The notes: generated from the letters alone by a model not told the origin. 46,424 bases of DNA from Rhodospirillaceae bacterium (GCA_020425485.1 JAGQRL010000029.1:1-46424); one strand, 5' to 3'; positions 15,752 to 33,519 are shown, numbered from the stretch's first letter. A program made the numbers and translations.

Positions 15752-15752
15752 G

Positions 15753-16862: not shown

Positions 16863-16895
16863 AAGAGGGCAGGAACCGCCCTACCCGCGCCCCTC

Positions 16896-18689: not shown

Positions 18690-18921
18690 CGGTTTCCTAT
18701 CGAACTGCGAAACAGGCGCCAGGTCTTGGGAGGGCCGGCAGGGGCAATCGGGGGGAGCGACGCTGCCAAGGATATAGGCCGGAACTTGGGGTTGCGCCAA
18801 CCCGCGGCGCCTGCCGTGGGTCAGCCGCGGCGCCGCGTCTGGCCGGCCACTCTCTCCAAAGTGGTGGCGGCACGCCGCGCCGGCCGGTCCTGGCGGTTTG
18901 ACCCGGCCGGGTGCGGATGGC

Positions 18922-19494
18922 ATGTCTTCGGGCATGCAACGCAGTCTGATCTCCCGGATGCAGCGCCTGCCGACGACCGTCTGGCTGGGCGCCGGTGCCG
19001 CCGTTCTGTTCGTGCTCTATTTCGGCTTCGTGGAACTGATGGAAGCGCGGGAAGCTGCCCGCATCGCGGCGGAACGCCAGGAGGACCCCGCGCGCTATCT
19101 GGACGAGGTGCGCACCCGCCACGGGCTGGATGCCTATATCGAAGCCCTGGCCGACGTGCGCGATTTCGATACCTGGCGGGATCAGGCGCCGACCTTCCTG
19201 GTGGGCGCCTGGGCGCTGGTGGATGCCGACGCGGACACCGTGGGGGAAGACCCCGGCGCCCATTGCCTCACCGGGCTGGTGGTGGAGGACGGGCGGCTGC
19301 GCTATTTCGGCGACCGCCGCGACAGCTTCGCTGCCCGCTACCGCATCGAGGACACCACCATCCTGGTGGACCTGGCGGACGGCGGGGAAATCACCATGCG
19401 GTCGCCGCCCGATCCCTGGCACCCCCACCAGCTTGAAATCACCCTGCCGGGCAGCGAGGAGCCCTATTATGGCTTCCGCTGCGAGGTGTACTGA
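18922..19494 (+). CDS. Hypothetical membrane-anchored protein
   Basis: ORF with one N-terminal TM (TTVWLGAGAAVLFVLYFGFV) and an acidic soluble domain. Composition looks like real coding sequence. The start is uncertain (TTG 18898, ATG 18922 or ATG 18934). I recognise no family. Confidence 0.5.
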   Translation: MSSGMQRSLISRMQRLPTTVWLGAGAAVLFVLYFGFVELMEAREAARIAAERQEDPARYLDEVRTRHGLDAYIEALADVRDFDTWRDQAPTFLVGAWALVDADADTVGEDPGAHCLTGLVVEDGRLRYFGDRRDSFAARYRIEDTTILVDLADGGEITMRSPPDPWHPHQLEITLPGSEEPYYGFRCEVY

Positions 19495-19556
19495 GCGGGG
19501 TTTTCGGTGTTGGCGGCACCAGCCCGCTCCTCCACCCGGCCACCCAAACGCAAACA

Positions 19557-19595
19557 CGGCCCGCCGGGAGCATCCCGAACGGGCCGCGCTTTGTT
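19557..19595. terminator. GC-rich hairpin with T-rich or A-rich flanks between convergent genes; candidate bidirectional terminator
   Basis: CGGCCCG (19557-19563) pairs with CGGGCCG (19580-19586), with additional inner pairs. It is followed by CGCTTTGTT on the plus strand and by TGTTTGCGTTTGG on the minus strand. Confidence 0.45.
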
Positions 19596-19618
19596 GGTGC
19601 CGGAGGGGAGCCCGGCTC

Positions 19619-19646
19619 GCTGCCGTCACGCCGTCATGACGGCAGC
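19619..19646. terminator. 10-bp perfect stem hairpin 20 nt downstream of the tctC stop
   Basis: GCTGCCGTCA - 8 nt - TGACGGCAGC. There is no clear U-tract. Confidence 0.35.
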
Positions 19647-19666
19647 GTCAATCGATTTGCCGGGGC

Positions 19667-20623
19667 TTATTCCGACAGGTCGATATTGGCCAGCAGGTCG
19701 GCGAAGAACGCGTCTTCCGCCGCCAGGATTTCCGCCAGCTCGGCGGCCGGAGCGTAGTCGATCTCCGTCAGCGTGGTGCGGCCGTATTCCTGGAAGCTCT
19801 CGGCGTTCACCGCCACGTCGAAGGCGTGCGACAGGGTCTCGACCACCTCGTCCGGCGTGCCGGCCGGCACCCAGACGGCGATATTCGGCGGCAAGGCCAG
19901 GTCGATGCCCACTTCGCGCAGGGTCGGCACGTCGGGCGCCACCGAAGCGCGCTCTTCGCTCAACTGGGCCAGCGGCACCAGGTTGCCGCCGTCCGCCTGG
20001 GGCATGATCGCCGAGGCATAGCCGAGCACCAGGTCGACATCGCCGGCCACCGCCGCGGCGATCGCCGGGGTCACGCCGCCGAAGGGAATGTGGAACAGCT
20101 CGATCCCGGCGGCCCGGGCAATGGCTTCCGCCGCGATATGGGTGGCACCGCCGGTACCGGCACTGCCGTAGCTCACCTCATCGGGATGGGCCGAGGCGTA
20201 TTCCACCATGCCTTCGATGGTGTCGAACGGCGCGCCGGTGCGCGCGGCAATGACATTGGGACCGACGGCGACGCGGGCCACCGGCACCAGGTCATCGAAG
20301 CCATAGGGCAGCTCGCGCTGGTGCGGCGCCACGGTCTGCACCGAGCTGACGGCGAACAGCAGCGTGTAGCCATCGGGGTCGGCACTGGCGACCGAGGCGG
20401 CCCCCACCGTGCCGCCGGCACCCGGCCGGCTTTCTACCACCACCGGCTGGCCCAGCTCTGCCGACAGGCCTTCCGACAGGGTGCGGGCCAGCGTGTCGGT
20501 GGCGCCGGGCGAGTAGGGCACCACGATGGTGATGGCGCGATCGGGGTAGTCCTGGGCATTGGCCGACGCTGCCCCGAGGGCCAGCGCCGTGCCGATCATC
20601 ACTGCGGTAAGCTTGCGTGTCAT
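19667..20623 (-). CDS. tctC: Tripartite tricarboxylate transporter (TTT) substrate-binding protein, Bug/TctC family
   Basis: Signal peptide MTRKLTAVMIGTALALGAASANA, then Bug-family signatures ITIVVPYSPGATDTLAR ... VVVESRPGAGGTVGA ... DGYTLLF. AGGAGAGG RBS. Confidence 0.9.
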   Translation of the reverse strand: MTRKLTAVMIGTALALGAASANAQDYPDRAITIVVPYSPGATDTLARTLSEGLSAELGQPVVVESRPGAGGTVGAASVASADPDGYTLLFAVSSVQTVAPHQRELPYGFDDLVPVARVAVGPNVIAARTGAPFDTIEGMVEYASAHPDEVSYGSAGTGGATHIAAEAIARAAGIELFHIPFGGVTPAIAAAVAGDVDLVLGYASAIMPQADGGNLVPLAQLSEERASVAPDVPTLREVGIDLALPPNIAVWVPAGTPDEVVETLSHAFDVAVNAESFQEYGRTTLTEIDYAPAAELAEILAAEDAFFADLLANIDLSE

Positions 20624-20674
20624 CGTACCTCTCCTGATCGGGTTGGGAGTTTTGGATCCTTCGTCATTCAGCCC

Positions 20675-22078
20675 TCATGCGGCGGCCGACAGGCGGTCGC
20701 GCACCGCTGCGGTGCCGGCGATCTGGCCGAGCCCCAGCGCCCCCAGCAGCCCGTTGCCCGAGGCATAGCCGCGGCTGCCGGCAAGCCCGCTGATCCCCAC
20801 CGCCGCCCCGCCGCCGGCATAAAGCCCGGGGATCGGCTCGCCCGCGGCGGTCAGCACGCGGGCCTCGCGGTCCACCATCAGGCCGCCCTGGGTGTGCAGC
20901 ACGGCGGGTGCCACGCGGGTGGCGCGGAGATGGCCGTGCGACAGGCCACCGCCCCAGGCGCTGCGGCCGAACGGGCAGGCCAGGGTGCCATCGGCCGCCA
21001 GGGCCACTTCCGCCAGCGTGTCGGCCAGCAGGTCGGGATCGGCGCCGATCTTGGCGGCGAGCGCTTCGGGGCTGTCCCCGCCGGCAAAGCCGCCCATGGC
21101 GCCAAGTTCGGCGAAATCGGGTTGGCCGGCGCCCACCAGGTCGGCGATGCGGTCGTCGTAGATCACGAAGAAGGGGCCGGAGCGGGCCAGCTCCTCATCG
21201 GCGAAGGCGGAATAGCCCAGCGTCTCGTCGCCGAAGCGGCGGCCGGCGGCATCCACCACGATCCCGCCCTTCTCCACCACCGTCCAGGTCACCAGCGTGC
21301 CGTGGGGATCGGCGAAGGAGGCATGGGCCTGGTAGGCGCCCAGATTGCCGAAACCGGCCCCCAAGGCGGCCCCCCAGCGCAGCGCTTCGCCCTGGCTGCC
21401 CGGTGCCCCGGCATAGGGGGCGCCGGCGGCCACCGGGCAATGGGCGGCCAGCAGGTCCGGTGCGGCGGCAAAGCCGTTCACCGCCAGCACCACGGCGGCC
21501 GCACCGATGCGCGCGGTATCGCCATGGGCGGTTTCGGTGACCGCCCCCACCACGCGGCCGCCGTCCACCAGCAGCTCGCGCGCCGGGTTGCCGAAGGCCA
21601 CCGGGATGCCGCGCACGTCCGCCGCCTTCAGCAGGCCGGCCATCAGGGTTTCGCCGCGCCGGTCCGGCGGCGCGTGCAGCCGGTGCACGCTGTGGCCCAC
21701 ATGCTTGTAGGTGTCGATCAGCGTCAGCTCGATGCCGACGCGGTCGACCAGCCATTCCACCAGCGGGGCGGACTGGGCCGCCAGCCGTTCGGTGAGGTGC
21801 ATGGCTTCGTGCGGGCCGGTCACCGCCGCCAGGTCGGCCACGTAGGTTTCCGGGGAATCGACGATGCCGGCGGCGCGCTGGAAACGGGTGCCCGCACCGG
21901 GGATGGAGCCGCTGGACAGCACCGTGTTGCCCATGGGCCGGTCCTGCTTTTCCACCACCGCGACCTCGGCCCCCAGGTCGTTGGCGGCGAGCGCGGCAAC
22001 GAGCCCGCAACCGCCGGCTCCGATCACCAGCACATCCACCGTGGCGTCGTGGGGGGAGGCGCCGCCGCCTGGCATCAT
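20675..22078 (-). CDS. FAD-dependent oxidoreductase of the succinate dehydrogenase/fumarate reductase flavoprotein superfamily (FAD_binding_2; TcuA/KstD-like)
   Basis: Dinucleotide fold DVLVIGAGGCGLVAALAA ... VVEK and C-terminal HTQGGL ... GLYAGGG. 467 aa. ATGA overlap with the upstream gene. Confidence 0.8.
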   Translation of the reverse strand: MMPGGGASPHDATVDVLVIGAGGCGLVAALAANDLGAEVAVVEKQDRPMGNTVLSSGSIPGAGTRFQRAAGIVDSPETYVADLAAVTGPHEAMHLTERLAAQSAPLVEWLVDRVGIELTLIDTYKHVGHSVHRLHAPPDRRGETLMAGLLKAADVRGIPVAFGNPARELLVDGGRVVGAVTETAHGDTARIGAAAVVLAVNGFAAAPDLLAAHCPVAAGAPYAGAPGSQGEALRWGAALGAGFGNLGAYQAHASFADPHGTLVTWTVVEKGGIVVDAAGRRFGDETLGYSAFADEELARSGPFFVIYDDRIADLVGAGQPDFAELGAMGGFAGGDSPEALAAKIGADPDLLADTLAEVALAADGTLACPFGRSAWGGGLSHGHLRATRVAPAVLHTQGGLMVDREARVLTAAGEPIPGLYAGGGAAVGISGLAGSRGYASGNGLLGALGLGQIAGTAAVRDRLSAAA

Positions 22079-23019
22079 GGCCCCCCGTCGCGCTGGGCGT
22101 ATTTCTGGTCGAAGGCTTCGGTGGTCAGCAGCCGCTTTTCCAGGGCGCGCGCCTCCGCATAGCCCATCAGGTCCATGATGTCGTCGATGCTGGCCAACAG
22201 GTCCGGCCGGTCGATCGGCTCGCCCGTCTCGATCACGCCGCGCATCAGGCTGAGTGCGGTCGTCATGGCCTTGATGGCGGCGGCCGGCAGCATGCGCGGC
22301 AGGCTGACCCGGCGCACCCCCAGCTCACGCAGCCGCGGCAGTGCGATCAGCGGCGTGGTGGGGCGCGAGCGGATGCCGAAGCCCATGTTGACGGACACCG
22401 GCACGCCGGCGGCTTCGACGATGCGGGCGATGTCGTCCTCGGTCTTCACCGCATCGGGGAAGATCACATCGGCGCCGGCGGCCACATAGGCGGCGATGCG
22501 GGCGCACGCCCCCTCGATCCCTTCCATCGCCAGGGCATCGGTGCGGGCGACGATGACGAAATCGTCGTCGCGGCGGGCCAGGCACGCCGCTTCGATCTTC
22601 TTCACCATCTCCGCGGCCGGCACGACTTCCTTGCCCGGCATGTGGCCGCAGCGCTTGGGGCTGACCTGGTCTTCGATGTTGATGCCGACGGCACCGGCAT
22701 CCTCGAACTCGCGCACCGTGTGGTGCACGTTCACCGGATTGCCGTAGCCGGTATCGGCATCGCAGGTGACGGGGATGGACACGGCACGCACGATGTTGCG
22801 GCACTGGTCCACATTCTCCGCCAGCCCCATCACCCCCATGTCGGCGATGCCGAGGCGCGAGTTGGAGATGGCGGCCCCGCTTGTCGCCGCCGTCTTGAAC
22901 CCGGCGGCTTCCACCAGGCGGGCGCTGTAGCCGTCATAGACACCGGGGGAAACGACCAGGTCGTCGCCGGCCAGGAGCGTGCGGTAGGCTCGCGCTTTCG
23001 TTTCAACCATCTGCAGCAT
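22075..23019 (-). CDS. Isocitrate lyase/PEP mutase family enzyme (2-methylisocitrate lyase or carboxyvinyl-carboxyphosphonate phosphorylmutase-like)
   Basis: Motifs VSPGVYDGYSARL, PVTCDADTGYG, GINIEDQVSPKRCGHMPGKEV, ARTDA. The ATG at 23019 is preceded by GGAG. Confidence 0.85.
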   Translation of the reverse strand: MLQMVETKARAYRTLLAGDDLVVSPGVYDGYSARLVEAAGFKTAATSGAAISNSRLGIADMGVMGLAENVDQCRNIVRAVSIPVTCDADTGYGNPVNVHHTVREFEDAGAVGINIEDQVSPKRCGHMPGKEVVPAAEMVKKIEAACLARRDDDFVIVARTDALAMEGIEGACARIAAYVAAGADVIFPDAVKTEDDIARIVEAAGVPVSVNMGFGIRSRPTTPLIALPRLRELGVRRVSLPRMLPAAAIKAMTTALSLMRGVIETGEPIDRPDLLASIDDIMDLMGYAEARALEKRLLTTEAFDQKYAQRDGGP

Positions 23020-23710
23020 TGGGGCTCCGTTGCCGGCGGCCGGCGGCCGGCCGGTCGGTCGTGGCAGCCGCGCCATCGCCATCGGCGGCTTCCAGCCGGG
23101 CCGACAGGTGGGCGGCCGCCCGCTTGATGTGCGAGCGCATCAGGGATTCCGCCAGATCCTCGTCGCGCATCTGGATGGCGCGGAGGATCTGCCAGTGTTC
23201 GTGGTAGGCATCGGTGCGGCGGTTGCCTTCGTCGCCCGAGCGGCGGCGGTAGAGCCGGAACAGGTGGTAGAGGTCGCCGCACAGGGCATCGATGATGCGG
23301 GTGTTGCCGCTGGCCATGGCGAGCCGCGCATGCAGGTCGAAGGCCGGCCGGCCGCCATTGCTGCTGCGCGCCGCTTCCAGATCCTCAAACAGCTTGTCCA
23401 GCTCCACCTCGCTGACGCGGCGGGCGGCCAGGCGCGCGGCGTAGCCTTCGATGGCCTCGCGCATCTGGAACAGCTCGATCATCTCGCGCGGCGACAAGGT
23501 GACGACGCGCGCGCGCATATAAGGTTCGCGGGTGACGAGCTGGATGCCCTGCAGGCGCCGCACCGCTTCGCGCACCGGGCCGCGGCTGACGCCGAATTCC
23601 TGCGCCAGGCTGGTTTCGTTGATGATCTCGCCGGGCGCGATCTCGCAGGCATCGATCTTCGCGAGCATGCGCTGAAACACGTCCTCGCCCAGGGAAACTG
23701 CCTTGTCCAT
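23003..23710 (-). CDS. GntR family transcriptional regulator (FadR/FCD subfamily)
   Basis: wHTH region INETSLAQEFGVSRGPVREAVRRLQGIQLV followed by a helical FCD-like domain. The 3' end overlaps the next gene by 17 nt. Confidence 0.85.
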   Translation of the reverse strand: MDKAVSLGEDVFQRMLAKIDACEIAPGEIINETSLAQEFGVSRGPVREAVRRLQGIQLVTREPYMRARVVTLSPREMIELFQMREAIEGYAARLAARRVSEVELDKLFEDLEAARSSNGGRPAFDLHARLAMASGNTRIIDALCGDLYHLFRLYRRRSGDEGNRRTDAYHEHWQILRAIQMRDEDLAESLMRSHIKRAAAHLSARLEAADGDGAAATTDRPAAGRRQRSPNAADG

Positions 23711-23734
23711 GCCGCCTCAATGCCCCGCCAAACC

Positions 23735-23930
23735 GTCAACACTTTTCGTTTGATCAAGCAATGTGTCAACGTTTTTTGCCGTAGGGTTATCTGGGCATGA
23801 CACCGGGGCCGGTTCAGTTGCCACAAAACCCTATATATTTCAGACGATAGTATGCCTTTCCATAAGATCCATCTCAAGATCCGCCTCGCAGAGGCGCTGT
23901 AAGAGAGAACGATACAGCAAAAGAGTTGAC
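23735..23930. promoter_or_regulatory. AT-rich divergent promoter region with repeated GTCAAC/GTTGAC boxes and a TTGATCAA palindrome; candidate GntR operators
   Basis: GTCAAC at 23735-23740 and 23765-23770 flank TTGATCAA (23750-23757). GTTGAC is at 23925-23930. Each box fits the GT-N2-AC core. This is the lowest-GC stretch of the cluster. Confidence 0.35.
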
Positions 23931-24003
23931 AGTTTTGCCACCGGCCGGACACACTGAAGAGCGGGTCATCCACAGGCCCCGCACTTCTTTTCCGGAGGAC
24001 GGC

Positions 24004-26715
24004 GTGACCCGGTCGTGCGCCCGCGCACACAGCAGGGATGGCTTCAAGCGGTTTGCCGATATCGCGGCTGCCGCCCACCGCCACACCCGCCCGGTCGAAG
24101 AGCTGCCCTACGCCATCCGCGTGCTGCTGGAAAACCTGGAACGCCAGGTCCTCACCCGCCCGGCCACCGCCGTGTCCGAAGCCGATATCGCCGCCACCGT
24201 GGCGTTCGAGGACTTTTCCGGCCGCGGCCTGGCGCTCGCCGTCCCTCGGGTGATCCTGCCGGATTCCAGCGGCGTGCCGGCCTTGCAGGATCTGGCCGCC
24301 CTGCGCGATGCCATCCACCGTGCCGGCGGCGACGCCGCGGCCGTCGAGCCGCGGGTGCCGGTGGACGTGATCGTCGACCACTCCTTGCAGGTGGACCGCG
24401 CCGGCAGCCCCGACGCGCGCGTGCACAACATGAAGCTGGAGCTGGAGCGCAACGCCGAGCGCTACCGCTTCCTGCGCTGGGCCCAGGGCGCCTTCACGGC
24501 GGTGCGGGTGTTCCCGCCGGGCTCCGGCATCATCCACCAGATCAATCTGGAGCATATCGCGGAGGTCGTGCGCGTCGATGCGGACGGCCTCGCCTACCCC
24601 GATTTCGTCATCGGCGGCGATTCCCATACCCCCATGGTGAATGGGCTGGGCGTGCTTGGCTGGGGCGTCGGCGGCATCGACGCCGTCGCTGCCATGCTGG
24701 GCCAGGACTACGTGTTCTCCCTGCCCGGCGTCGCCGGTGTGGAGCTGGTGGGCACCTTGCCCGCCGGCTCCACCACCACCGATCTGGCCCTGCACGTCAC
24801 CCAGGCGCTGCGGGCCGAGGATGTGGTGGGCTGCTTCGTGGAATTCTTCGGGCCGGCGGCCGCCGCCCTGTCGGTGCCCGAACGCGCCACCCTGGCCAAC
24901 ATGGCGCCGGAATACGGCGCCTCGGCCGGCTATTTCCCCATCGATCGGCGCACCGTGGACTATCTGGCCGCCACCCGCTCGCCGGCGAAGGCCCGGCTGG
25001 TGGAAGCCTATGCCCGCGCCAACGCGCTGTTTCGCGACGCTGCGGGTGCCGCGCCGGCCTATCCCCGCGTGGTGCGCATCGACCTGGGCGATGTGCGACC
25101 CTCCGTCGCCGGGCCGAAGCGCCCGCAGGACCGGCTGGACCTCGCCGCCATCCGCCCGGACTTCGAAGCCCGGCTTGCCCGCCCGCTGGCGGAGGACGGG
25201 TTTGCCGCCGCCGATCCCGGCCGCCGCACCCAGAAGGGCCGGCTCGGCCACGGCAGCGTGGCCATCGCCGCCATCACCTCGTGCACCAACACCTCCAACC
25301 CGCGGGTGATGCTGGCCGCCGGCCTGGTGGCGCAGAAGGCCGCCGCCCTGGGGCTGACGGTGCCGGCGCATGTGAAAACCTCCATGGCCCCCGGCTCCCG
25401 CGCCGTCACCTTATATCTGGAGGAAACCGGGCTGCTCGCCCCCCTGGAGCGGCTGGGCTTCCACGTGGTGGGCTATGGCTGCACCACCTGCGGCGGCAAG
25501 TCCGGCCCGCTCAGGGCGGACATCGCGGCGGAAATCGAAGCCGGCGGCCTGGTGGCCGCCGCCGTGCTGTCCGGCAACCGCAATTTCGAAGGCCGCATCC
25601 ACCGCCTCGTGCGGGCCAACTACATCATGTCGCCGCCGCTGGTGGTGGCCTTCGCGCTGGCCGGGCGGGTGGATATCGACCTGACGGCAGCCCCGCTGGC
25701 CCACACCGCGGACGGCCGCGCCGTCCACCTGGCCGATCTGTGGCCGACGGAGGACGAGATCGCCGCCCACCTCGCCGTGGCGGAGGACGGGGCCTGCCTG
25801 CACCGGGCCTATGCCGCCGCGGACACCGGCGCTGGCGCCTGGGCCGGCGAGGCTGAGGAGGGGCAAGCGGGCTCGGCCCTGTTCCCGTGGGATCCGGCCT
25901 CGCACTACCTGGTGGAACCGCCCTTCCTGGCCGCCGCCCAGGCCGGCACCTGTTCGTCCCGCGATCTCGCCGGGGCGCGCGTGCTGGGGCTGTTCGGGGA
26001 TTCGCTGACCACCGACCACATCTCCCCCGGCGGCGAGATCCCGGTGGACAGCGAAGCCGGCCGCTACCTGCTGGCCCAGGGCATTCCGCGCGAAGCCTTC
26101 AACAGCTATGTCGGGCGGCGCGGCAACCACCATGTGATGACGCGCGCCACCTTCGCCAATCTGCGCATCAAGAACCGCCTGGCGCCGGGCCGCGAAGGCG
26201 GCTGGACACGGCATTTCCCCAGCGGCGAGGTGGTGTCGATCTTCGAAGCCGCCCGGCGCTACCGCGACGCCGGCGTGGCGATGATCGTCATGGCGGGCAG
26301 CGAATACGGCACCGGCAGCAGCCGCGACTGGGCCGCCAAGGGCACCGCGCTCTTGGGCGTGCGCGCGGTGATCGCCGGCTCGTTCGAGCGCATCCACCGC
26401 TCCAACCTGATCGGCCTGGGCGTGCTGCCGCTGGCCTTCGACGACGGAGCGACGGCCGACAGCCTGGGGCTTGACGGCAGCGAGACCTACGATTTCGCCG
26501 ACACCGCCGAAGCCATCGCCGGCACCTGCCCGGTGGCCGTGACCGTCCACCACGCCGATGGGCGCCGCACCGGCTTTACGGCGACGCCGCAACTCCTCAA
26601 CGATGCCGAACGGCGCATCCTTCTGGACGGCGGGGTGCTGCCCCGCGTCTTCCACGCCATCCTCCGCGACCAGAGCGAAACGCGGGCACCAAGCCACGGA
26701 GCGTGTCTTGCTTGA
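24004..26715 (+). CDS. Aconitate hydratase A-type (monomeric, about 903 aa) aconitase-family paralog
   Basis: Motifs LPYAIRVLLENLER, IGGDSHTPMVNG, ITSCTNTSNP, GYGCTTCGGKSGP (Fe-S cysteines), SGNRNFEGR and a swivel domain. GTG start at 24004 with GGAGGA 4 nt upstream. Confidence 0.85.
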   Translation: MTRSCARAHSRDGFKRFADIAAAAHRHTRPVEELPYAIRVLLENLERQVLTRPATAVSEADIAATVAFEDFSGRGLALAVPRVILPDSSGVPALQDLAALRDAIHRAGGDAAAVEPRVPVDVIVDHSLQVDRAGSPDARVHNMKLELERNAERYRFLRWAQGAFTAVRVFPPGSGIIHQINLEHIAEVVRVDADGLAYPDFVIGGDSHTPMVNGLGVLGWGVGGIDAVAAMLGQDYVFSLPGVAGVELVGTLPAGSTTTDLALHVTQALRAEDVVGCFVEFFGPAAAALSVPERATLANMAPEYGASAGYFPIDRRTVDYLAATRSPAKARLVEAYARANALFRDAAGAAPAYPRVVRIDLGDVRPSVAGPKRPQDRLDLAAIRPDFEARLARPLAEDGFAAADPGRRTQKGRLGHGSVAIAAITSCTNTSNPRVMLAAGLVAQKAAALGLTVPAHVKTSMAPGSRAVTLYLEETGLLAPLERLGFHVVGYGCTTCGGKSGPLRADIAAEIEAGGLVAAAVLSGNRNFEGRIHRLVRANYIMSPPLVVAFALAGRVDIDLTAAPLAHTADGRAVHLADLWPTEDEIAAHLAVAEDGACLHRAYAAADTGAGAWAGEAEEGQAGSALFPWDPASHYLVEPPFLAAAQAGTCSSRDLAGARVLGLFGDSLTTDHISPGGEIPVDSEAGRYLLAQGIPREAFNSYVGRRGNHHVMTRATFANLRIKNRLAPGREGGWTRHFPSGEVVSIFEAARRYRDAGVAMIVMAGSEYGTGSSRDWAAKGTALLGVRAVIAGSFERIHRSNLIGLGVLPLAFDDGATADSLGLDGSETYDFADTAEAIAGTCPVAVTVHHADGRRTGFTATPQLLNDAERRILLDGGVLPRVFHAILRDQSETRAPSHGACLA

Positions 26716-28093
26716 TATCCTCTTCCAGAATGCCCGCATCGTGTTTCCCGGCGACGGGGTGGTTCCCGGTGCCGTCGGCGTGAAGGACGGCCGCATCGCC
26801 GCCATCCTGGCACCCGGCGAAACCGAAGCGGCGGCCGAGGTGATCGACTGCGGCGAACAGTTCCTGATGCCGGGGCTGATCGATCCCCACACCCATTTCG
26901 GCTTCGGCTCCAACGAAACCGACTTCCGCACCGAAAGCCGTTCCGCCGCCTTGGGCGGGGTGACCATGGCGTTCACCTTCCACCGCTCGCCCGACCTGCG
27001 GGAGTCCACCGGGCCGTGGCGCGACCGCGGCAACGAGCAGAGCTGCATCGACTTCGCGTTCCACTACGGGCTCACCAGCCAGCTGCATGTGGAGACGCTG
27101 AAGGAGTGTGCGGAAACCTTCGGCGTGAACTCCTTCAAGTTCTACCTGATGTACAAGGGCGAGGCCGGGGCGGCGAAGGGCTTCACGGAAATCGACGACG
27201 CGCTGCTGTTCTCCACCATGCAGCAGGTGGCGCGCATCAAGGGCGGGGTGCTCGGCGCCCATTGCGAGAATGTGGAGGTGATCCGCGCCCTGCGCCCGCC
27301 GGTGAAGGCGGCCGGCCGCGACGACCTGAAGGCGTGGGACGACCAGAGCCCGGACTATCTGGAAGCGGAGAACGTGTTCCGCGTCGGCTACTTCGCCGAC
27401 AAGGCGGAATGCCGCGCCAACATCGTCCACCTGTCCAGCCGCGAAGGGCTGGAGGTGACGGACTATCTGCGCTCAAAGCCGCGCTCCGCCCCGCTGCATG
27501 TGGAAACCTGCACCCACTACCTGTTCATGACCACCGATTGGCCAGCACCGGTGGGCAAGGTGAACCCGCCCCTGCGCAGCCAGCGCGATGTCGATGCCCT
27601 GTGGCAGGCGGTGGTGGACGGGCGCATCGAAACCGTGGGGTCCGACCACGTGCCGCGCAAGCGCGCCACCAAGGGCCCGGACATCTGGACCGCCACCGCC
27701 GGCTTCCCCGGCATCGCCACGGTGCTGCCCATCCTGATCACCGAAGGCTATCACCACCGCCGCGTGCCCATCGAACGCATCGCCGCGGTCACCAGCGCCA
27801 ATGTGGCGCGCCAGTACAACGTGCCGAACAAGGGCCGCATCGCGCCGGGCATGGATGCCGACCTGGTGCTGGTGGACCCCGACTGCGAGCGGGTGGTGGA
27901 CCCGGCCACGCTGGAGTCCTTCTCCGACTATTCCACCTACGAAGGCATGCCGCTGAAGGGCTGGCCCACCGGCACCTGGGTGCGCGGCCGCCGTGTGGTT
28001 GCCGACGGTGCGGTGCTGGCCGATGTGGCCGCAGCCCCCGGCGGCCGCTTCGTGCCGCGCTGGGGCGATCTTGCTGCCCGCCCCGCCAACTGA
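26708..28093 (+). CDS. Cyclic amidohydrolase of the dihydropyrimidinase/D-hydantoinase family
   Basis: Metal-site motifs GLIDPHTHF, SFKFYLMYKG (carbamylated Lys position), GAHCEN, IVHLSS, GSDHVP. TTG start with GGAG 7 nt upstream. It overlaps the aconitase stop by 8 nt. Confidence 0.8.
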   Translation: MLDILFQNARIVFPGDGVVPGAVGVKDGRIAAILAPGETEAAAEVIDCGEQFLMPGLIDPHTHFGFGSNETDFRTESRSAALGGVTMAFTFHRSPDLRESTGPWRDRGNEQSCIDFAFHYGLTSQLHVETLKECAETFGVNSFKFYLMYKGEAGAAKGFTEIDDALLFSTMQQVARIKGGVLGAHCENVEVIRALRPPVKAAGRDDLKAWDDQSPDYLEAENVFRVGYFADKAECRANIVHLSSREGLEVTDYLRSKPRSAPLHVETCTHYLFMTTDWPAPVGKVNPPLRSQRDVDALWQAVVDGRIETVGSDHVPRKRATKGPDIWTATAGFPGIATVLPILITEGYHHRRVPIERIAAVTSANVARQYNVPNKGRIAPGMDADLVLVDPDCERVVDPATLESFSDYSTYEGMPLKGWPTGTWVRGRRVVADGAVLADVAAAPGGRFVPRWGDLAARPAN

Positions 28094-28121
28094 GAACCGG
28101 AACCACGGGATCCGACGCGCG

Positions 28122-28841
28122 ATGAAACGCATCTGGGACGACTTCCTCACCGAGCGGGACCAGCAGGTCCTGGCCGCCGCCGGCTATGGCAAGCGCGGCG
28201 GCTTCGGCACACGCCCGGCCCTGTTCATCATCGATACCCAGTACAATTTCTGCGGCGATCAGCCCGAAGACATCCTGGACGGGCTGAAGACCTACCGCAC
28301 CCATTGCGGCCGTGAAGGCTGGGCGGCGGTGGAGCGCATCGTGCCGCTCCTGGAACTGGCGCGGCAGAAGAACATCCCGATCTTCTATACCGAAAGCGAA
28401 CGCCGCCCCGACCTGATCGACAGCGGCGTGCAGGTGGGCAAGAACTATCGCGGCACCGAAAAGACGGTGGTGGAAGGCACCCACGCCACCCGCACCGTGG
28501 AACCGCTGGCGCCGCGGCCGCAGGATATCCGCATCGGCAAGCGCAAGCCGTCCTGCTTCTTCGGCACCATCTTCATGAGCCACCTGAACTTCTTCGACGT
28601 GGACACGCTGATCCTGGTGGGCTGCACCACGTCGGGCTGCCTGCGCGCCACCGCGGTGGATGCCTATTCCTTCAACTTCAAGGTCGTGATCCCCGAGGAG
28701 TGCTCGTTCGACCGCTTCCAGGCGAGCCACGCGGTGAACCTGTTCGACCTCAACTGCAAATACGCCGACGTGATCCCCACCGACGAGGTGGCCACCTACC
28801 TGGAAGCCCTGCCGCGGCGCGAGCTGCCGGCGGGGGCCTGA
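28122..28841 (+). CDS. Isochorismatase-family cysteine hydrolase (N-carbamoylsarcosine amidase/amidase-like)
   Basis: D-K-C triad context: ALFIIDTQYNF, IGKRKPSCFFGT, LILVGCTTSGCLRATAVDA. Confidence 0.8.
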   Translation: MKRIWDDFLTERDQQVLAAAGYGKRGGFGTRPALFIIDTQYNFCGDQPEDILDGLKTYRTHCGREGWAAVERIVPLLELARQKNIPIFYTESERRPDLIDSGVQVGKNYRGTEKTVVEGTHATRTVEPLAPRPQDIRIGKRKPSCFFGTIFMSHLNFFDVDTLILVGCTTSGCLRATAVDAYSFNFKVVIPEECSFDRFQASHAVNLFDLNCKYADVIPTDEVATYLEALPRRELPAGA

Positions 28842-28847
28842 CGCGCC

Positions 28848-29597
28848 ATGGCCAGCCAGATCCAGCGCGCCGTCGTCACCGGCACCTCATCGGGCATCGG
28901 CTGCGCCGTCGCCACCCGCCTGCTCGGCCACGGCTGGCAGGTGACGGGGCTCGACCGCGTGACGGGGCCGCTGGCCGGCCAGCCCGACTTCACCGAGATC
29001 CTCGCCGACCTCGCCGACGTGGTGGAGCTGGAAGTCGCCACCGCGCGGCTGGAGGACCAGACGTGGCACGCCCTGGTGCATGCCGCCGGCATCATGCGCG
29101 ATGACCGCGACGCGGAAACCGCGCGCTGCCACGGCACTAACCTGTGGGCGCTGCATGTGGCCGCCGCCGCCAGGCTGGCCGCGGCGGTGCTGCCGCACAT
29201 GCCCAAGGGGCGCGGTCGCATCGTCTTCCTGTCCAGCCGCGCGGCCGCCGGCCGGCCGGGGCGGGGCTACTACGCGGCCTCCAAATCGGCCCTCGACGGG
29301 CTCGCCCGTACCCTGGCTGCGGAATATGTGGGCTGCGGCATCACCGTGAACGTGCTCGCCCCCGGCGCCACCGATACCCCGCAGCTCAGCGATCCTGCGC
29401 GGGCGGCAAGCCCGGTGCGCCTGCCGCCCTTGGGCCGCCTGATCAGCGCCGAGGAGGTGGCGGCCACCGTCGCCTTCCTGGTGGGGGCGGAAGCCGGCGC
29501 CATCACCGGGCAGACCATCGTGCAATGCGGCGGCGCCTCCCTGGCCGCTGCCTGGCCGGCGGCGGTGTGGTCCGGGCAGATGGAGCCACGGGCGTGA
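28848..29597 (+). CDS. SDR family oxidoreductase
   Basis: VVTGTSSGIGCAVA Rossmann motif and YYAASKSALDGL catalytic YxxxK. Confidence 0.85.
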   Translation: MASQIQRAVVTGTSSGIGCAVATRLLGHGWQVTGLDRVTGPLAGQPDFTEILADLADVVELEVATARLEDQTWHALVHAAGIMRDDRDAETARCHGTNLWALHVAAAARLAAAVLPHMPKGRGRIVFLSSRAAAGRPGRGYYAASKSALDGLARTLAAEYVGCGITVNVLAPGATDTPQLSDPARAASPVRLPPLGRLISAEEVAATVAFLVGAEAGAITGQTIVQCGGASLAAAWPAAVWSGQMEPRA

Positions 29598-30037
29598 GGG
29601 CGCGCACCAGCCTGGCCGAAACCGTTGCCGCCGGCGTGGTCGTCGCCTTCGGGCTCGCCACCATCTGGCTGTCGTCTGATTTCCCCATGGGCACCGTCAC
29701 CCGCATGGGGGCCGGCTACGTGCCGATGGCGCTGGGCATCATCATCACCGCACTGGGCATTGCCATCGCCCTGTTCGACCGGTCCGACGAACGGCCGCGC
29801 ATCGTTATCGCGCTGAAGCCCTTCGCCATGATCCTCTTAGGCATCCTCTTGTGGGCGCTGACGGTGGACCGGCTGGGGTTCTTCGCCGCCTCGGCCATCC
29901 TGGTGGTGTGCTGCGCGGTGGTGGAGAAGGGCAACACCTGGCGCTCGGTGCTCGCCCTCGTCGTCTTCATGTGCGTTGCCGGCTACCTCGTCTTCATCGA
30001 GGGGCTCGGAATTCCGCTTTCGGCCTTCGGAGAGTAG
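29594..30037 (+). CDS. tctB: TTT small membrane subunit, TctB family
   Basis: 147-aa protein with 4 TM segments. The GTG overlaps the SDR stop (GTGA). It sits immediately upstream of tctA. Confidence 0.7.
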   Translation: MRARTSLAETVAAGVVVAFGLATIWLSSDFPMGTVTRMGAGYVPMALGIIITALGIAIALFDRSDERPRIVIALKPFAMILLGILLWALTVDRLGFFAASAILVVCCAVVEKGNTWRSVLALVVFMCVAGYLVFIEGLGIPLSAFGE

Positions 30038-30043
30038 CCAATC

Positions 30044-31567
30044 GTGGATCTGATCAGCGGCCTTGCCCTCGGCATCGACACCGCCATCACCGGCGAAGCG
30101 CTGCTGTACTGCTTCATCGGCGTCACCGTCGGCATGTTCATCGGCGTGCTGCCGGGCATCGGCCCGCTGGCCGCGGTGTCCATGGTGTTGCCCATCACCT
30201 TTCACCTGGACCCGATGAGCGCGCTGATCATGCTGGCCGGCATCTTCTACGGCGCGCAGTACGGCGGCTCCACCGCGTCCATCCTGCTCAACCTGCCGGG
30301 CACCTCGACGACGGCGGTCACGGCCATCGACGGCTACCCCATGGCCAAGCAGGGGCGCGCCGGCATTGCCCTGTTCATCACCACCATCGCGTCGTTCCTC
30401 GGCGGCTGCTTTGCCATCGTGCTGCTGATGAGCTTCGCGCCGGTGCTGGGGCGCCTGGCCCTGCGGTTCTCCTCCGCCGAATACTTCTCCATCATGCTGC
30501 TGGGGCTGGTGGCCGCGTCCACCATGTCGCTGGGCTCCACCTTCAAGGGCCTGGTGTCGGTGGCGGCGGGGCTCTTGATCAGCATGGTCGGCATGGACCC
30601 CACCTCCGGCTACATCCGCTTCACCTTCGGCATCCTGGAATTGCAGGACGGGCTGAGCCTGGTGGCCATCGCCATGGGCCTGTTCGGGGTGGCCGAGATC
30701 CTGAAGAACGCCGGCTCCCCGGAACGTGACACCAGGGCCTTGCAGAAGGTGCGCATCCGCGACCTCATCCCCACCCGCAAGGACATGTCGCAATCCTGGA
30801 TGCCCATCCTGCGCGGCGCCGGCATCGGCTCCTTCGTCGGCATCCTGCCGGGGGCGGGGCCGACCATGGCGGCCTTCATGGCCTATGCCATGGAAAAGCG
30901 GGTGGCGCGCGACAAGAGCCGCTTCGGCCGTGGCGCCATCGAGGGCATCTCCGCCCCGGAAAGCGCCAACAACGCCTCCACCCAGGCGGCCTTCATCCCC
31001 ACCTTGTCGCTGGGCATCCCCGGCGATGCCGGCATGGCGGTGCTGCTGGGGGCGATGATGATCCACGGCATCGTTCCGCGCCCGGAATTCTTCTCCACCA
31101 ACCCCGACCTGTTCTGGGGCCTGGTGGTCAGCTTCTGGGTCGGCAACCTGATGCTGCTGGTGCTGAACATCCCGCTGATCGGCGTGTGGGTGCGCATCCT
31201 GGCGATCCCGCAGCGGCTGCTGTTCCCGGCGATCATCTTCTTCATCTGCGTTGGGGTGTATTCCATCAACAACAACCCCTTCGACGTGATGGTGGTGATC
31301 GTCTTCGGCATCGTCGGCTACTTCATGAACATCTTTCAGTACCCGCCCGCGCCGCTGCTGATGGGTTTCATCCTGGGGCCGATGATGGAGCAGCACTTCC
31401 GCCGCGCGCTGCTGTATTCCCGCGGCGATCTGTGGACGTTCATCGACCGGCCGGTGAGTGCGGCCTTCCTGGCCTGCTCGGTCGCCCTGATGGTGGTGGT
31501 GGCGCTGCCGTCCTTGCGCCGGCGATCGGGCAGGGGGCGCCGCGCGGCTTTGGAAACGGAGGACTGA
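30044..31567 (+). CDS. tctA: TTT large membrane subunit, TctA family
   Basis: 507-aa polytopic protein with TctA signatures GVLPGIGP, YGAQYGGSTASILLN(L)PG, GILPGAGPTMAAF. Confidence 0.9.
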   Translation: MDLISGLALGIDTAITGEALLYCFIGVTVGMFIGVLPGIGPLAAVSMVLPITFHLDPMSALIMLAGIFYGAQYGGSTASILLNLPGTSTTAVTAIDGYPMAKQGRAGIALFITTIASFLGGCFAIVLLMSFAPVLGRLALRFSSAEYFSIMLLGLVAASTMSLGSTFKGLVSVAAGLLISMVGMDPTSGYIRFTFGILELQDGLSLVAIAMGLFGVAEILKNAGSPERDTRALQKVRIRDLIPTRKDMSQSWMPILRGAGIGSFVGILPGAGPTMAAFMAYAMEKRVARDKSRFGRGAIEGISAPESANNASTQAAFIPTLSLGIPGDAGMAVLLGAMMIHGIVPRPEFFSTNPDLFWGLVVSFWVGNLMLLVLNIPLIGVWVRILAIPQRLLFPAIIFFICVGVYSINNNPFDVMVVIVFGIVGYFMNIFQYPPAPLLMGFILGPMMEQHFRRALLYSRGDLWTFIDRPVSAAFLACSVALMVVVALPSLRRRSGRGRRAALETED

Positions 31568-31568
31568 G

Positions 31569-32006
31569 ATGGCCGAAACGACCGGGGCCGAAACGACCGC
31601 TGCCGAAACCCTGGTGCGCGACTTCCTGGCCGCGGTGGAACGCCGCGATGTCGCCGCCTGCCAGGCGGTGATGGCGCCCGACATCGTGATGACCTTCCCC
31701 AGCGGCGTGCGCCATGCCGATATCCAGGCGCTGTTCGCCTCGTCGGGCAAGCGCTACCGCGCCGTCGCCAAGACCATCGAGCAGGTGGACGTGCTGCCGA
31801 CGGGGGCGGAGGCCGCCATCGTCTACTGCTTCGGCACGCTCTACGGCACCTGGATGAACGGCCAAGCGTTCGACGGCATCCGCTTCATCGACCGGTTCGA
31901 GATCAAGGGCGGGCTGATCACGCGCCAGGACGTGTGGAACGACAGCGCCATCTTCCGCCCGGCCGAAGAGCCGTCGACGCCGGCCTCCCGGGCCACCCTG
32001 CTGTAG
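31569..32006 (+). CDS. SnoaL-like / NTF2-fold small protein
   Basis: 145 aa. The pattern (LVRDFLAAVERRDVAA ... DRFEIKGGLITRQDVWND) is typical of the NTF2-like polyketide-cyclase fold. It starts 1 nt after the tctA stop. Confidence 0.6.
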   Translation: MAETTGAETTAAETLVRDFLAAVERRDVAACQAVMAPDIVMTFPSGVRHADIQALFASSGKRYRAVAKTIEQVDVLPTGAEAAIVYCFGTLYGTWMNGQAFDGIRFIDRFEIKGGLITRQDVWNDSAIFRPAEEPSTPASRATLL

Positions 32007-32127: not shown

Positions 32128-32685
32128 CTAGATATCGATGTTCAGCGTCAGCTCGTAGACGGCCTGCTTGCTGACGCTCCACTTGCCGGAATTGTAGACG
32201 TGGCGGGCGAAGTTCACATGCGCCCAGAAGGCCGATTCCAGCACGGATTCGCCCATGAACTGGTCGGTGGTGTTCTTCTCCGGGATCAGCGCCAGTAGCT
32301 GCGGCAGGTTTTCCAGGTCGCTGCCGTCGTTGATCCGGTAGGTGCCTTCGAAATCGCCCGTCAGGGTGACGACGATGTCGCACACCATCAGGCCCTGCTC
32401 GGCGCGCGCCCGGTTGATCTTCATCAGGTTTTCCGCGATGAGCTGGCCGGCCGCGGCCCCCAGGCCCTGTAGCGGCTTGGTGACGATGTCCGCCACCGTG
32501 ACCACGATCCCGGCCGGGCCGCCAACCACCGCGGCCGCACCCTTCTTCATGATCTGCTTCAGCACCTGCTTGGCCGCGAATTCCTTGGCCTTGCTTTCCA
32601 GCTTCGGGCTGCCTTCGAACCAGCCGTCATAGATGCGCGAATAGCCGAAATCCTGGTTCGTCGCGGTGATCTTGTAGCCAATCAT
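32128..32685 (-). CDS. Hypothetical protein (185 aa), no recognisable family
   Basis: ATG at 32685 with GGGAGA upstream. Composition is balanced and K/E-containing, unlike the spurious high-GC ORFs. It has a central Gly/Ala-rich hydrophobic segment GAAAVVGGPAGIVVTVADIV. GC is about 60%. Confidence 0.55.
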   Translation of the reverse strand: MIGYKITATNQDFGYSRIYDGWFEGSPKLESKAKEFAAKQVLKQIMKKGAAAVVGGPAGIVVTVADIVTKPLQGLGAAAGQLIAENLMKINRARAEQGLMVCDIVVTLTGDFEGTYRINDGSDLENLPQLLALIPEKNTTDQFMGESVLESAFWAHVNFARHVYNSGKWSVSKQAVYELTLNIDI

Positions 32686-33519
32686 GACCGACGGTCTCCC
32701 CCCATCCCGGCGGCGGCGATAGCGGGCCGCCCAGTGGCCCGGCGCGCCGCGCCTCGTCGATTGATCGAACCCAACGTGCTCGGAAGGGAAATTTGCCCGG
32801 CAATAGGGCAACGGCACGGCTTCTTCTTGCCGGCAATGCCTGGCTGCCGCCCCTCCCGCCAGCCGCCCGGCCCTGCGTGCGCGGACCATACCATCGCGCC
32901 ATGCGGGCCCGAAGGGTGGTGCGACGGGTGCGCCGATTGGTCTAAGTGTGATCACAGATCACCGATCAACAATCATTGATCTTGACCATGCTTCGGACCT
33001 ATGGCACCGTTTTGCCAAGAGCTGGAAACGGTCATGAAAGGCAATCGCCAAAGCCGCACGTCCGTTGGCGGGTTGAACGCGGCCAGACCCTACTAATCCT
33101 TCAGTATTACACCGGGCGCTTGTCAGAATCAGGGCTCGCGGCACGGACGAATTATAGCCCGTGGACTGCGCGAGATCATGGCAGCGGGCCGGGCACTGGC
33201 GGGGCATCTGGCGAAGACGGGCACAGCGGCCGAGCGGCCGCCGGCAAGCTGCGGGTCGCCGGGCAGTGCCAGCCAGCCGAAAGGTTTGGCGGTGCGCGCG
33301 GTGCGGCGCTACCAGGGGGCCAATGCGGTGCCCGGACCAATCCAACGGCCAACCCTGCCGCGTGCGGTCTTGCGGCAGGCACGGCCCCGATCCCATCCCC
33401 AGCCAGGGAGGTGAGTGACCGCCACGAAGCCCACCCAGATCCGACTTCCAACAGCCGTCGCCCAATCCCGAATGGCGGCGGCGCCAAGAACAAAATCGGA
33501 CACCAGGAGGAACACCGTC

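Follow-up and report, generated by a model that had tools for sequence, protein, structure and literature searches.

A conserved GntR-type divergon of a Rhodospirillaceae bacterium combines two amide hydrolases with an aconitase paralog and a PrpB-like lyase, possibly for catabolism of a carboxylated cyclic imide

A contig of a Rhodospirillaceae bacterium (GCA_020425485.1, JAGQRL010000029.1:1-46424; the whole stretch of 46,424 nucleotides is referred to as the window) harbors eleven genes in two divergent operons between positions 19667 and 32006, as determined by Pfam and NCBIfam scans. The region is best explained as a self-contained catabolic divergon that is repressed by its own FCD-type GntR regulator, in which known enzyme families are assembled for a catabolic pathway without published description. 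Central to it are a hydantoinase-like cyclic amidohydrolase (hyd), an isochorismatase-fold cysteine amidase (iso), an AcnA-type aconitase (acn) and a PrpB-like C-C lyase. We infer, for each step, the order of the steps and the substrate alike, that a carboxylated cyclic imide is opened to a half-amide and deamidated to a tri- or tetracarboxylate, which is then hydrated by the aconitase and cleaved by the lyase, and we assign a probability of about 0.5 to this route.

In the proposed pathway the tripartite tricarboxylate transporter (TTT) would import a carboxylated N-heterocycle. An accessory SnoaL-like isomerase, a short-chain dehydrogenase/reductase (SDR) and a flavoprotein would adjust its tautomer and oxidation state to the level of a cyclic imide, either of the succinimide/maleimide type or a 2,6-dioxopiperidine with a carboxylate arm. 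The hydantoinase-like enzyme would cut one imide C-N bond to yield a half-amide (H2N-CO-C-C-COO-), from which the cysteine amidase, resembling N-carbamoylsarcosine amidase (CSHase) and NicF, would free ammonia to leave a tri- or tetracarboxylate resembling aconitate, namely a substituted maleate or succinate. The dedicated AcnA paralog would hydrate or isomerise the amidase product to an isocitrate-like 2-hydroxy acid, which the PrpB-like lyase would split into a 2-oxo acid and a dicarboxylate.

The conserved core, from which this route is read, comprises two hydrolases, a hydratase and a C-C lyase and holds no oxygenase, deaminase or aminotransferase. A terminal carboxamide or ureido group is required by the amidase, so the nitrogen of the ring must be flanked by two carbonyls, which holds for imides and ureides. 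An imide is favoured, since only an imide, its nitrogen having no additional bond to the carbon skeleton, sheds all of this nitrogen through two hydrolases and directly leaves a nitrogen-free polycarboxylate for aconitase and lyase, whereas a ureide leaves an amino acid and the core is without an enzyme for removing the amino group. Hydantoinase-family enzymes are described to hydrolyse 3-substituted glutarimides to monoamides (PMC13098106), and the nicotinate-derived imide of Aspergillus nidulans is handled successively by a dehydrogenase, a cyclic imidase and an amidase (PMC9304392). The sequence-only reading of this region had already proposed import, ring opening or deamidation, desaturation or oxidation, aconitase isomerisation and lyase cleavage. 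This logic stands as the most economical reading of the core with the exception of the desaturation, which is not obligatory, since the flavoprotein is found in just 20 of 80 related loci (obtained by a scan with the hydrolase alignment, one genome per species, with neighbourhoods rebuilt by tblastn and clustering of open reading frames (ORFs)).

Gene organization of the two operons

The source assembly is a metagenome-assembled genome (MAG) of 454 contigs and 3.8 Mb that is 89.7% complete. Its divergon is organized as follows.

19667-20623, minus strand: tctC, periplasmic receptor (TctC family) for solutes of the TTT transporter, final gene of the minus operon (Pfam TctC, 195.8 bits)
20675-22078, minus strand: FAD_binding_2 flavoprotein, accessory oxidoreductase (Pfam FAD_binding_2, 158.9 bits)
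22075-23019, minus strand: PrpB-like C-C lyase of the PEP-mutase/isocitrate-lyase (ICL) superfamily (PEP_mutase, 190.6 bits; ORF open to 23082)
23003-23710, minus strand: gntR, GntR/FCD-type regulator, first gene of the minus operon (Pfam GntR and FCD)
23733-23932, no strand: divergent control region with three copies of the putative operator (conserved inverted repeat)
24004-26715, plus strand: acn, AcnA-type aconitase paralog of 903 amino acids (aa) from the GTG at 24004, which follows GGAGG (ORF open from 23926)
26708-28093, plus strand: hyd, hydantoinase-like cyclic amidohydrolase of the binuclear-metal type (nearest structure L-hydantoinase 1GKR)
28122-28841, plus strand: iso, isochorismatase-fold cysteine amidase of the N-carbamoylsarcosine amidase/maleamate amidase group
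28848-29597, plus strand: sdr, SDR oxidoreductase, accessory (adh_short_C2, 116.8 bits)
29594-30037, plus strand: tctB, small membrane subunit of the transporter (Pfam TctB, 59.6 bits)
30044-31567, plus strand: tctA, large membrane subunit of the transporter (Pfam TctA, 540.9 bits)
31569-32006, plus strand: snoaL, SnoaL/NTF2-like protein, candidate isomerase or tautomerase (SnoaL_2, 39.7 bits)

The gene content of both operons, the domains and the coordinates, as initially read from the sequence, were all confirmed by the Pfam and NCBIfam scans. Inspection of start codons likewise bore out the tight junctions that had been noted (8-nt, GTGA and ATGA overlaps and gaps of 1 to 28 nt) and revealed one further gap of 51 nt before tctC. 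On the plus strand, acn and hyd overlap by 8 nt, hyd and iso are separated by 28 nt and iso and sdr by 6 nt; sdr and tctB share a GTGA overlap, followed by gaps of 6 nt between tctB and tctA and of 1 nt between tctA and snoaL. On the minus strand, the lyase and flavoprotein genes overlap in an ATGA and the 51-nt gap lies between the flavoprotein gene and tctC, and the overlap of gntR with the lyase gene amounts to 8 or 17 nt, depending on the choice of ATG.

A putative operator common to both operons

The control region between gntR and acn contains a 16 bp inverted repeat with the consensus AAAGTGT-CA-ACACTTT, written AAAGTGTCAACACTTT. Of 42 compared intergenic regions between gntR and acn from Alpha- and Betaproteobacteria, 41 contain this element, with one to four copies each and with at least two in all but five. 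Three copies centred on GTCAAC are located here at 23735-23740, 23765-23770 and 23925-23930 (minus strand). A search of the full 3.8-Mb assembly with the derived pattern GTCAACNNTTTT gave three matches, every one in this control region, and the reversed control pattern gave one match. The regulator itself fits the FadR/FCD subfamily, with a winged helix-turn-helix and an FCD domain and with an inverted repeat having a GT-N-AC type core in its own control region. Judged from these motifs, the pattern would look as expected for a local FadR-type GntR repressor with a one-locus regulon, with binding of the regulator predicted. The idea that both operons form one co-regulated unit is thereby supported, as the putative operator lies in the divergent control region and is confined to this locus in the genome. 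With a dedicated regulator and a conserved operator the pathway is open to direct testing, since either the substrate or an early intermediate is expected to act as inducer.

In a Bordetella bronchiseptica-type subgroup (L084 of B. bronchiseptica itself, L033, L071, L085 and L086) the regulator is located about 10 kb away from the core, and two PrpD/MmgE paralogs, the flavoprotein and two TctC genes sit between the two.

Conservation of the core and its accessory genes

Of the 80 loci, 70 carry the aconitase, 75 the amidase and 64 the lyase, and 66 have an ortholog of the regulator next to the core. The complete enzyme quartet (acn, hyd, iso and lyase) was found in 62 loci; among the 60 loci with a length of 20 kb or more, 52 have it. 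The hosts include Bosea, Rhodoplanes, Chelatococcus, Shinella, Mesorhizobium, Gluconacetobacter, Azospirillum and Salinarimonas (Alphaproteobacteria), Bordetella (bronchiseptica, holmesii, hinzii), Achromobacter, Advenella and Pigmentiphaga (Betaproteobacteria) and a Steroidobacteraceae MAG (Gammaproteobacteria), demonstrating that the neighbourhood is conserved in other genomes of three classes. The cluster is uncommon; no further genome with an amidase ortholog was detected when 400 genomes were sampled evenly from the phylum.

A set like that of the window (core, flavoprotein, SnoaL-like protein and TctA) was found in five loci, which belong to a Rhodospirillaceae MAG (L008, hydrolase 95% identical), to Rhodoplanes (L016, L034, L035) and to a Hyphomicrobiaceae MAG (L015); L015 and L034 are without the SDR. 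Across all loci the SDR occurs in 33, the SnoaL-like protein in 13 and TctA in 11. Of the supercluster that had been proposed for this region, the five-gene core of lyase, GntR regulator, aconitase, hydrolase and amidase was thus retained, and the remaining genes proved to be variable accessories.

Several genes accompany the core elsewhere. In most loci (49 of 80, e.g. L040:12129-13121) the gene right after that of the amidase encodes a CobW/COG0523 GTPase, probably a chaperone that supplies metal to the hydrolase; the window lacks this gene, and it was not found in this assembly. PrpD/MmgE-family paralogs accompany the B. bronchiseptica-type loci, which fits tricarboxylate chemistry. A group of 24 loci is defined by an added PnpA/HspB-like FAD monooxygenase and a maleate-isomerase-like protein. 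Often the module further includes an aldehyde dehydrogenase (in 16 loci) and a class-III aminotransferase resembling HemL (in 12 loci), together with a HutC-type regulator in some loci and an ABC system or amino-acid permease. The module runs on straight after acn-hyd-iso on the same strand in Shinella and Mesorhizobium and is interleaved with the core in Gluconacetobacter; therefore, an amine precursor seems to feed the same pathway in those organisms. Apart from the HemL-like aminotransferase, no haem-pathway gene was found among the gene families that recur in at least 4 of the 80 loci.

The distribution of the genes also bears on an alternative that we consider quite unlikely, namely that one regulator governs two separate modules. 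Hyd, iso and the CobW protein would then scavenge nitrogen from a small amide or ureide, and acn and the lyase, with the flavoprotein and PrpD where present, would separately catabolise an imported nitrogen-free tricarboxylate (tricarballylate, an aconitate isomer or a methylcitrate-like acid), so that the hydrolase product is not the aconitase substrate. Consistent with this, three loci (L061, L069, L079) have hyd and iso without acn or lyase, two (L036, L037) have hyd without iso, PrpD paralogs occur in some loci, and a second cluster of the same genome on contig C81 has a lyase, a flavoprotein, a GntR regulator and two PrpD paralogs and neither hyd nor iso. TTT systems typically carry carboxylates, and the flavoprotein shows a distant similarity to TcuA. 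However, acn and hyd share 8 nt in this genome and are direct neighbours of like orientation in almost every locus, acn-hyd-iso flow into a single same-strand gene string in Shinella and Mesorhizobium, the four core genes are co-inherited across three classes, and a single type of operator serves both operons, all of which argues for one pathway.

The ring hydrolase and the amidase

Hyd scored below all curated cut-offs, with 263.4 bits for allantoinase (TIGR03178, cut-off 357.85), 260.5 for D-hydantoinase/dihydropyrimidinase (TIGR02033, cut-off 393.25) and 222 for ErtD (NF058538, cut-off 600); the dihydroorotase model likewise remained below its cut-off. Its nearest structure is the L-hydantoinase of Arthrobacter (1GKR, 216 bits), followed by D-hydantoinases and allantoinases. 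The metal ligands H61, H63, K144, H185, H241 and D313, corresponding to the HxH motif, the carboxylated Lys, two His and the Asp, are invariant in 16 relatives. For iso, the Asp-Lys-Cys triad aligns with that of CSHase. Together with the aconitase residues described below, these alignments confirmed that the catalytic residues of aconitase, hydrolase and amidase are intact, as had been noted from the sequence.

The nearest structures to iso are CSHase 26st (125 bits) and Pseudomonas 4L07 and 4L08 (93 and 89 bits), with further matches to the Arthrobacter CSHase 1NBA (86 bits) and Bordetella 3OT4/3UAO (75 bits). The Pseudomonas and Bordetella entries are listed in the PDB just as isochorismatase-family proteins; we take 4L07/4L08 to be the maleamate amidase Ami and 3OT4/3UAO the maleamate amidase NicF. 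If so identified, all nearest relatives of iso would take substrates of the form H2N-CO-X-Y-COO-, such as N-carbamoylsarcosine and maleamate. By its structure matches iso falls between the ureido and the carboxamide groups, and it has no curated model match. It is the most conserved gene of the cluster, with 73-97% identity over three classes compared to 52-88% for the aconitase and 57-95% for hyd, and a tight complex or a very constrained pocket is a possible explanation for this.

These similarities speak most directly for the main rival of the imide route, which we regard as unlikely overall. According to it, a carboxylated hydantoin or (dihydro)pyrimidine would be opened by hyd to an N-carbamoyl or ureido acid, from which iso, as a carbamoylase like N-carbamoylsarcosine amidase or RutB, would free NH3 and CO2; the resulting amino or enamine acid would need further deamination before aconitase and lyase could act. 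Both hydrolases have their nearest structures among ureide enzymes, hyd in L-hydantoinase and then D-hydantoinases and allantoinases, iso in CSHase with weak matches to BiuH and RutB. In addition, the class-III aminotransferase of twelve loci could deaminate an amino-acid product, and an Asp/Glu/hydantoin-racemase-superfamily protein lies beside the core in 24 loci. On the other hand, core and window are without an enzyme that removes the leftover amino group, even though aconitase and lyase need a nitrogen-free acid, and the models for ureide enzymes all stayed well under their cut-offs. Nor is a carbamoylase clear for iso, as 4L07/4L08, taken as maleamate amidase, score higher than the Arthrobacter CSHase 1NBA.

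Parallel clusters were also searched for around distant iso homologs (35-38% identity) in the even sample of 400 genomes, and none with a hydratase-lyase partner was found; these homologs mainly stood in NicF/NicE-like pairs or in unrelated surroundings. The best distant amidase homolog of the phylum sample (L123, G029:C1:269424-286065, 38% identity) lies in a different, CoA-dependent context, with an acyl-CoA dehydrogenase, an ADP-forming CoA ligase, a 3-hydroxyacyl-CoA dehydrogenase, an NMT1-type ABC system and two PEP-mutase-family genes as neighbours.

The aconitase paralog and the PrpB-like lyase

The cluster aconitase passes the AcnA models over the full four-domain length (TIGR01341, 1044.2 bits, cut-off 945; NF006757, 1119.6 bits, cut-off 686) and is below the cut-off for AcnD (TIGR02333, 749.9 bits versus 1419.85). 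A prpF-like neighbour was not seen. The iron-sulfur ligands C427, C493 and C496 are invariant in 36 aligned AcnA-type proteins, as are D125-H126, D206-S207-H208, N299, E303, R526, R531, R706, S772 and R774, and all three sets of carboxylate-binding residues are kept. Several motifs are altered in the cluster aconitases: GTDSHT reads GGDSHT in 68 of 70 and GCDSHT in the other two, GRIHP reads GRIH(R/K) in 69 of 70, and TATD shows a TTTD-like change.

A second AcnA of the same genome is represented by fragments on contigs C103 and C432, which are 60-65% identical to AcnAs of the housekeeping clade (Gluconacetobacter, Rhodoplanes, Bosea) and 45-48% identical to the cluster enzyme. Five other cluster-bearing genomes contain two to four AcnA-type genes each. 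In the tree, the cluster-linked aconitases form one clade apart from housekeeping AcnA and from AcnD-like paralogs. The presence of a housekeeping-type AcnA on C103/C432 and the separate clade show that the aconitase is, as previously proposed, an extra paralog and not the sole housekeeping acnA. Judged from sequence and tree, it is not orthologous with the housekeeping enzyme of the tricarboxylic acid (TCA) cycle and is a specialised paralog.

The lyase is below the cut-off for prpB (TIGR02317, 243.6 bits versus 354.4). It keeps the catalytic loop KRCGH (residue 143) and the metal motifs EDQ and DADTG, of which EDQ and DADTG are conserved in all cluster lyases examined, and the structure of 2,3-dimethylmalate lyase (3FA3) is among its matches. 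In the cluster lyases the Tyr before the SG motif is replaced by Ala or Cys, and the loop that reads N-I-T-E-F-G in PrpB is extended by a cluster-specific insertion of four residues (GIRxRP) that brings in two Arg. The orthologs share 69-75% identity and form their own clade, and paralogs within the same genome reach at most 46% identity. Positive charge is thus added in both enzymes, by the change of Pro to Arg/Lys next to the substrate arginines of the aconitase and by the RxR insertion at the distal-carboxylate loop of the lyase, which hints at a longer or extra carboxylate arm compared to 2-methylisocitrate.

That an ordinary AcnA and PrpB of TCA or methylcitrate (propionate) metabolism lie beside amide hydrolases by chance is very improbable and largely refuted. 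The aconitase does pass the generic AcnA models, prpB is the best model for the lyase, and no lyase of the 89.7%-complete assembly reaches the prpB cut-off. Yet a housekeeping-type AcnA is encoded elsewhere in the genome, prpC and prpD are missing from the window, and in B. bronchiseptica an AcnD-like and a PrpB-like gene, both separate from the cluster copies, lie side by side. Aconitase and lyase moreover form distinct clades with altered motifs in a conserved neighbourhood.

The C81 cluster mentioned above is a second tricarboxylate-type cluster of the same genome (approximately 12300-31500 of that contig). It encodes a PrpB-like lyase of 274 bits, which is below the prpB cut-off, a FAD_binding_2 paralog with 26% and a GntR paralog with 41% identity, the two PrpD/MmgE proteins and an aldehyde dehydrogenase.

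Accessory enzymes and transporter

The flavoprotein had been described as desaturase-like, with TcuA-type flavoproteins as precedent; a TcuA-type identity does not hold, since the protein scored 136.3 bits against a cut-off of 369 with the curated TcuA model NF006130 and 88.8 against 372.55 with TIGR02485. Its nearest structures are flavocytochrome c3 (Fcc3) fumarate reductase and urocanate reductase. The catalytic Arg of Fcc3 (R402) and its proton relay, E378 and R381, are replaced by Tyr, Trp and Val/Ile, respectively, in 21 of 21 orthologs and His365 is kept. A function as TcuA or fumarate reductase was thus ruled out by the TcuA score and by the replacement of the catalytic Arg by Tyr. For the SDR, no equivalog model was above cut-off.

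The SnoaL-like protein is a candidate for an isomerase or tautomerase that acts before the ring hydrolase, and its gene is located directly upstream of hyd in seven loci (L020, L023, L025, L043, L045, L067 and L077). With residues 66-184 of PDB 9MUA, an entry that bears the name 'Tautomerase', the protein shares about 50% identity. Many of its relatives, in many marine Rhodobacterales, are fusions of 185-190 aa with an N-terminal 4-oxalocrotonate tautomerase (4-OT) domain starting with Met-Pro (P0129, P0140, P0142, P0174, P0208), and 9MUA has the length of these fusions. The name of 9MUA was not adopted as the function of the SnoaL-like protein, because it most likely reflects the N-terminal 4-OT domain, which is lacking here. 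A separate 4-OT gene was found neither in the window nor in the 80 loci; one is located on contig C66 of the same genome.

TctA, TctB and TctC of the TTT transporter are all present and divided over the two divergent operons. The tctC ATG at 20623 is preceded by the ribosome-binding site AGGAGAGG, and the genome holds just four TctC-like genes.

Relation to known pathways

A search of the open-access literature yielded precedents for steps of the route and no description of this gene combination, in line with the sequence-only reading, which had not recognised it as a described pathway. To our knowledge, nicotinate fermentation by Eubacterium barkeri is the sole described pathway that applies a ring-opening enzyme of the amidohydrolase superfamily, a hydratase of the aconitase family and a lyase of the PEP-mutase/ICL family to a single N-heterocycle; its tail comprises enamidase, dimethylmaleate hydratase DmdAB and 2,3-dimethylmalate lyase Dml. 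In contrast to E. barkeri, the hydratase of the cluster is a monomeric AcnA-type and not a LeuCD-type enzyme, a cysteine amidase is added, the hosts are mostly aerobic proteobacteria, and a B12 mutase, a methylitaconate isomerase or a 6-hydroxynicotinate reductase was not seen in any locus.

The hydrolytic part resembles cyclic-imide catabolism by imidase (EC 3.5.2.16) and half-amidase, in which two hydrolyses free the ring nitrogen as ammonia and leave a (hydroxy)dicarboxylate and a dehydrogenase first makes the imide. In Blastobacter sp. cyclic imides are degraded by an imidase and a half-amidase. The cyclic-imide routes end at succinate, maleate or 2-hydroxyglutarate without a dedicated aconitase or lyase. 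The fungal nicotinate route employs the dehydrogenase HxnW, the cyclic imidase HxnM and the amidase HxnN (PMC9304392). Its hydrolases belong to families that differ from those of the cluster, HxnM being PuuE/deacetylase-like and HxnN an amidase-signature enzyme.

Hydantoinase-carbamoylase pairs, such as in the creatinine route, are similar in that hyd and iso have an L-hydantoinase and a carbamoylsarcosine amidase, respectively, as closest relatives of solved structure, but these pairs end in an amino acid without aconitase or lyase. The methylhydantoin hydrolase of the creatinine route is ATP-dependent and belongs to another family than hyd. With the maleamate branch of aerobic nicotinate/nicotine degradation (NicC/HspB, NicX, NicD, NicF/Ami, NicE/Iso) the cluster shares the relationship of iso to the presumed Ami and NicF and, in 24 related loci, the PnpA/HspB-like monooxygenase and the maleate-isomerase-like protein. 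Unlike in that branch, no ring-cleaving dioxygenase or formamidase was found in any locus, so that ring opening must be hydrolytic, and the proposed product would go to aconitase and not to fumarate.

As in the methylcitrate cycle with AcnA/AcnD and PrpB, an AcnA-type hydratase would be followed by a KRCGH lyase and the substrate arginines of the aconitase are kept. The differences are that the AcnD and prpB models are under their cut-offs, both enzymes fall into separate clades, GTDSHT and GRIHP are altered, the lyase carries the RxR insertion and PrpC is missing. Finally, tricarballylate utilisation by TcuABC similarly places a FAD_binding_2 flavoprotein near tricarboxylate enzymes and a carboxylate transporter, but here the flavoprotein reaches 136 bits compared to 369 for the TcuA model, TcuB is missing and the flavoprotein is absent from 60 of the 80 loci.

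Weighing of the imide route and candidate substrates

Several points weigh against a route via a carboxylated cyclic imide. Homology alone of hyd, to L-hydantoinase, and of iso, to carbamoylsarcosine amidase, would look like the ureide route. Among the cluster enzymes, only the generic AcnA models reach curated equivalog cut-offs, three long loci (the above L061, L069 and L079) have hyd and iso without acn or lyase nearby, and the roles of the 24-locus module (monooxygenase, maleate-isomerase-like protein, aldehyde dehydrogenase and aminotransferase) are not confidently placed. If the imide route is true, it would represent a new hydrolytic mode of ring-nitrogen removal and new substrate specificity in AcnA-type aconitases and PrpB-type lyases, and it would account for the conserved cluster in Bordetella (bronchiseptica, holmesii, hinzii), Achromobacter xylosoxidans, Bosea, Rhodoplanes, Shinella and others.

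As to the imide itself, we tentatively propose, as a possibility more likely wrong than right, that the cluster provides a bacterial route for pyrrole- or pyridine-derived carboxylated imides. These could be maleimides with propionate or acetate arms from oxidised haem, chlorophyll, bilin or excreted porphyrin, of which hematinic acid and a uroporphyrin-type maleimide may be candidates, or 2,6-dihydroxypyridine-4-carboxylate, a candidate that would give the aconitate skeleton. On such substrates the AcnA paralog would have a new specificity for a substituted cis-aconitate or homoaconitate, and the lyase would have a new specificity within the PrpB family, producing pyruvate, oxaloacetate or 2-oxoglutarate together with succinate or glutarate. 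The added Arg/Lys residues are compatible with this proposal, as is the aminotransferase/aldehyde dehydrogenase/ipso-hydroxylase module of the 24 loci, which would suit an aminomethyl-pyrrole, e.g. porphobilinogen. If the substrate is a pigment-derived imide, a gap in the recycling of tetrapyrrole debris would be filled.

Citrazinate is a further candidate; it would give trans geometry and would therefore need an isomerase. Histamine, vitamin B6, the thiamine pyrimidine and dipicolinate were rejected as substrates by reasoning only, as their skeletons give no vicinal-dicarboxy alkene with a third carboxylate arm.

Flanking genes and other features of the window

The flanks of the cluster are unrelated to it, with a CLC channel upstream and an orphan ORF downstream. 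For the flanking ORFs at 18697-19629 (minus strand) and 32128-32955 (minus strand) no credible Pfam match was obtained, and the former, overlapping the end of the CLC channel gene (16896-18935), may be a GC-rich artefact. The contig begins within a gene for an aconitase-family large subunit (10-930, plus strand), which covers positions 167-463 of the Pfam Aconitase model, is LeuC-like and is 31% identical to the cluster aconitase. It is followed at 1081-2742 (plus strand) by a gene for a protein of 553 aa that contains an extracellular contractile injection system (eCIS) core domain together with the N-terminal and catalytic domains of a Tse3-type muramidase of the type VI secretion system (T6SS).

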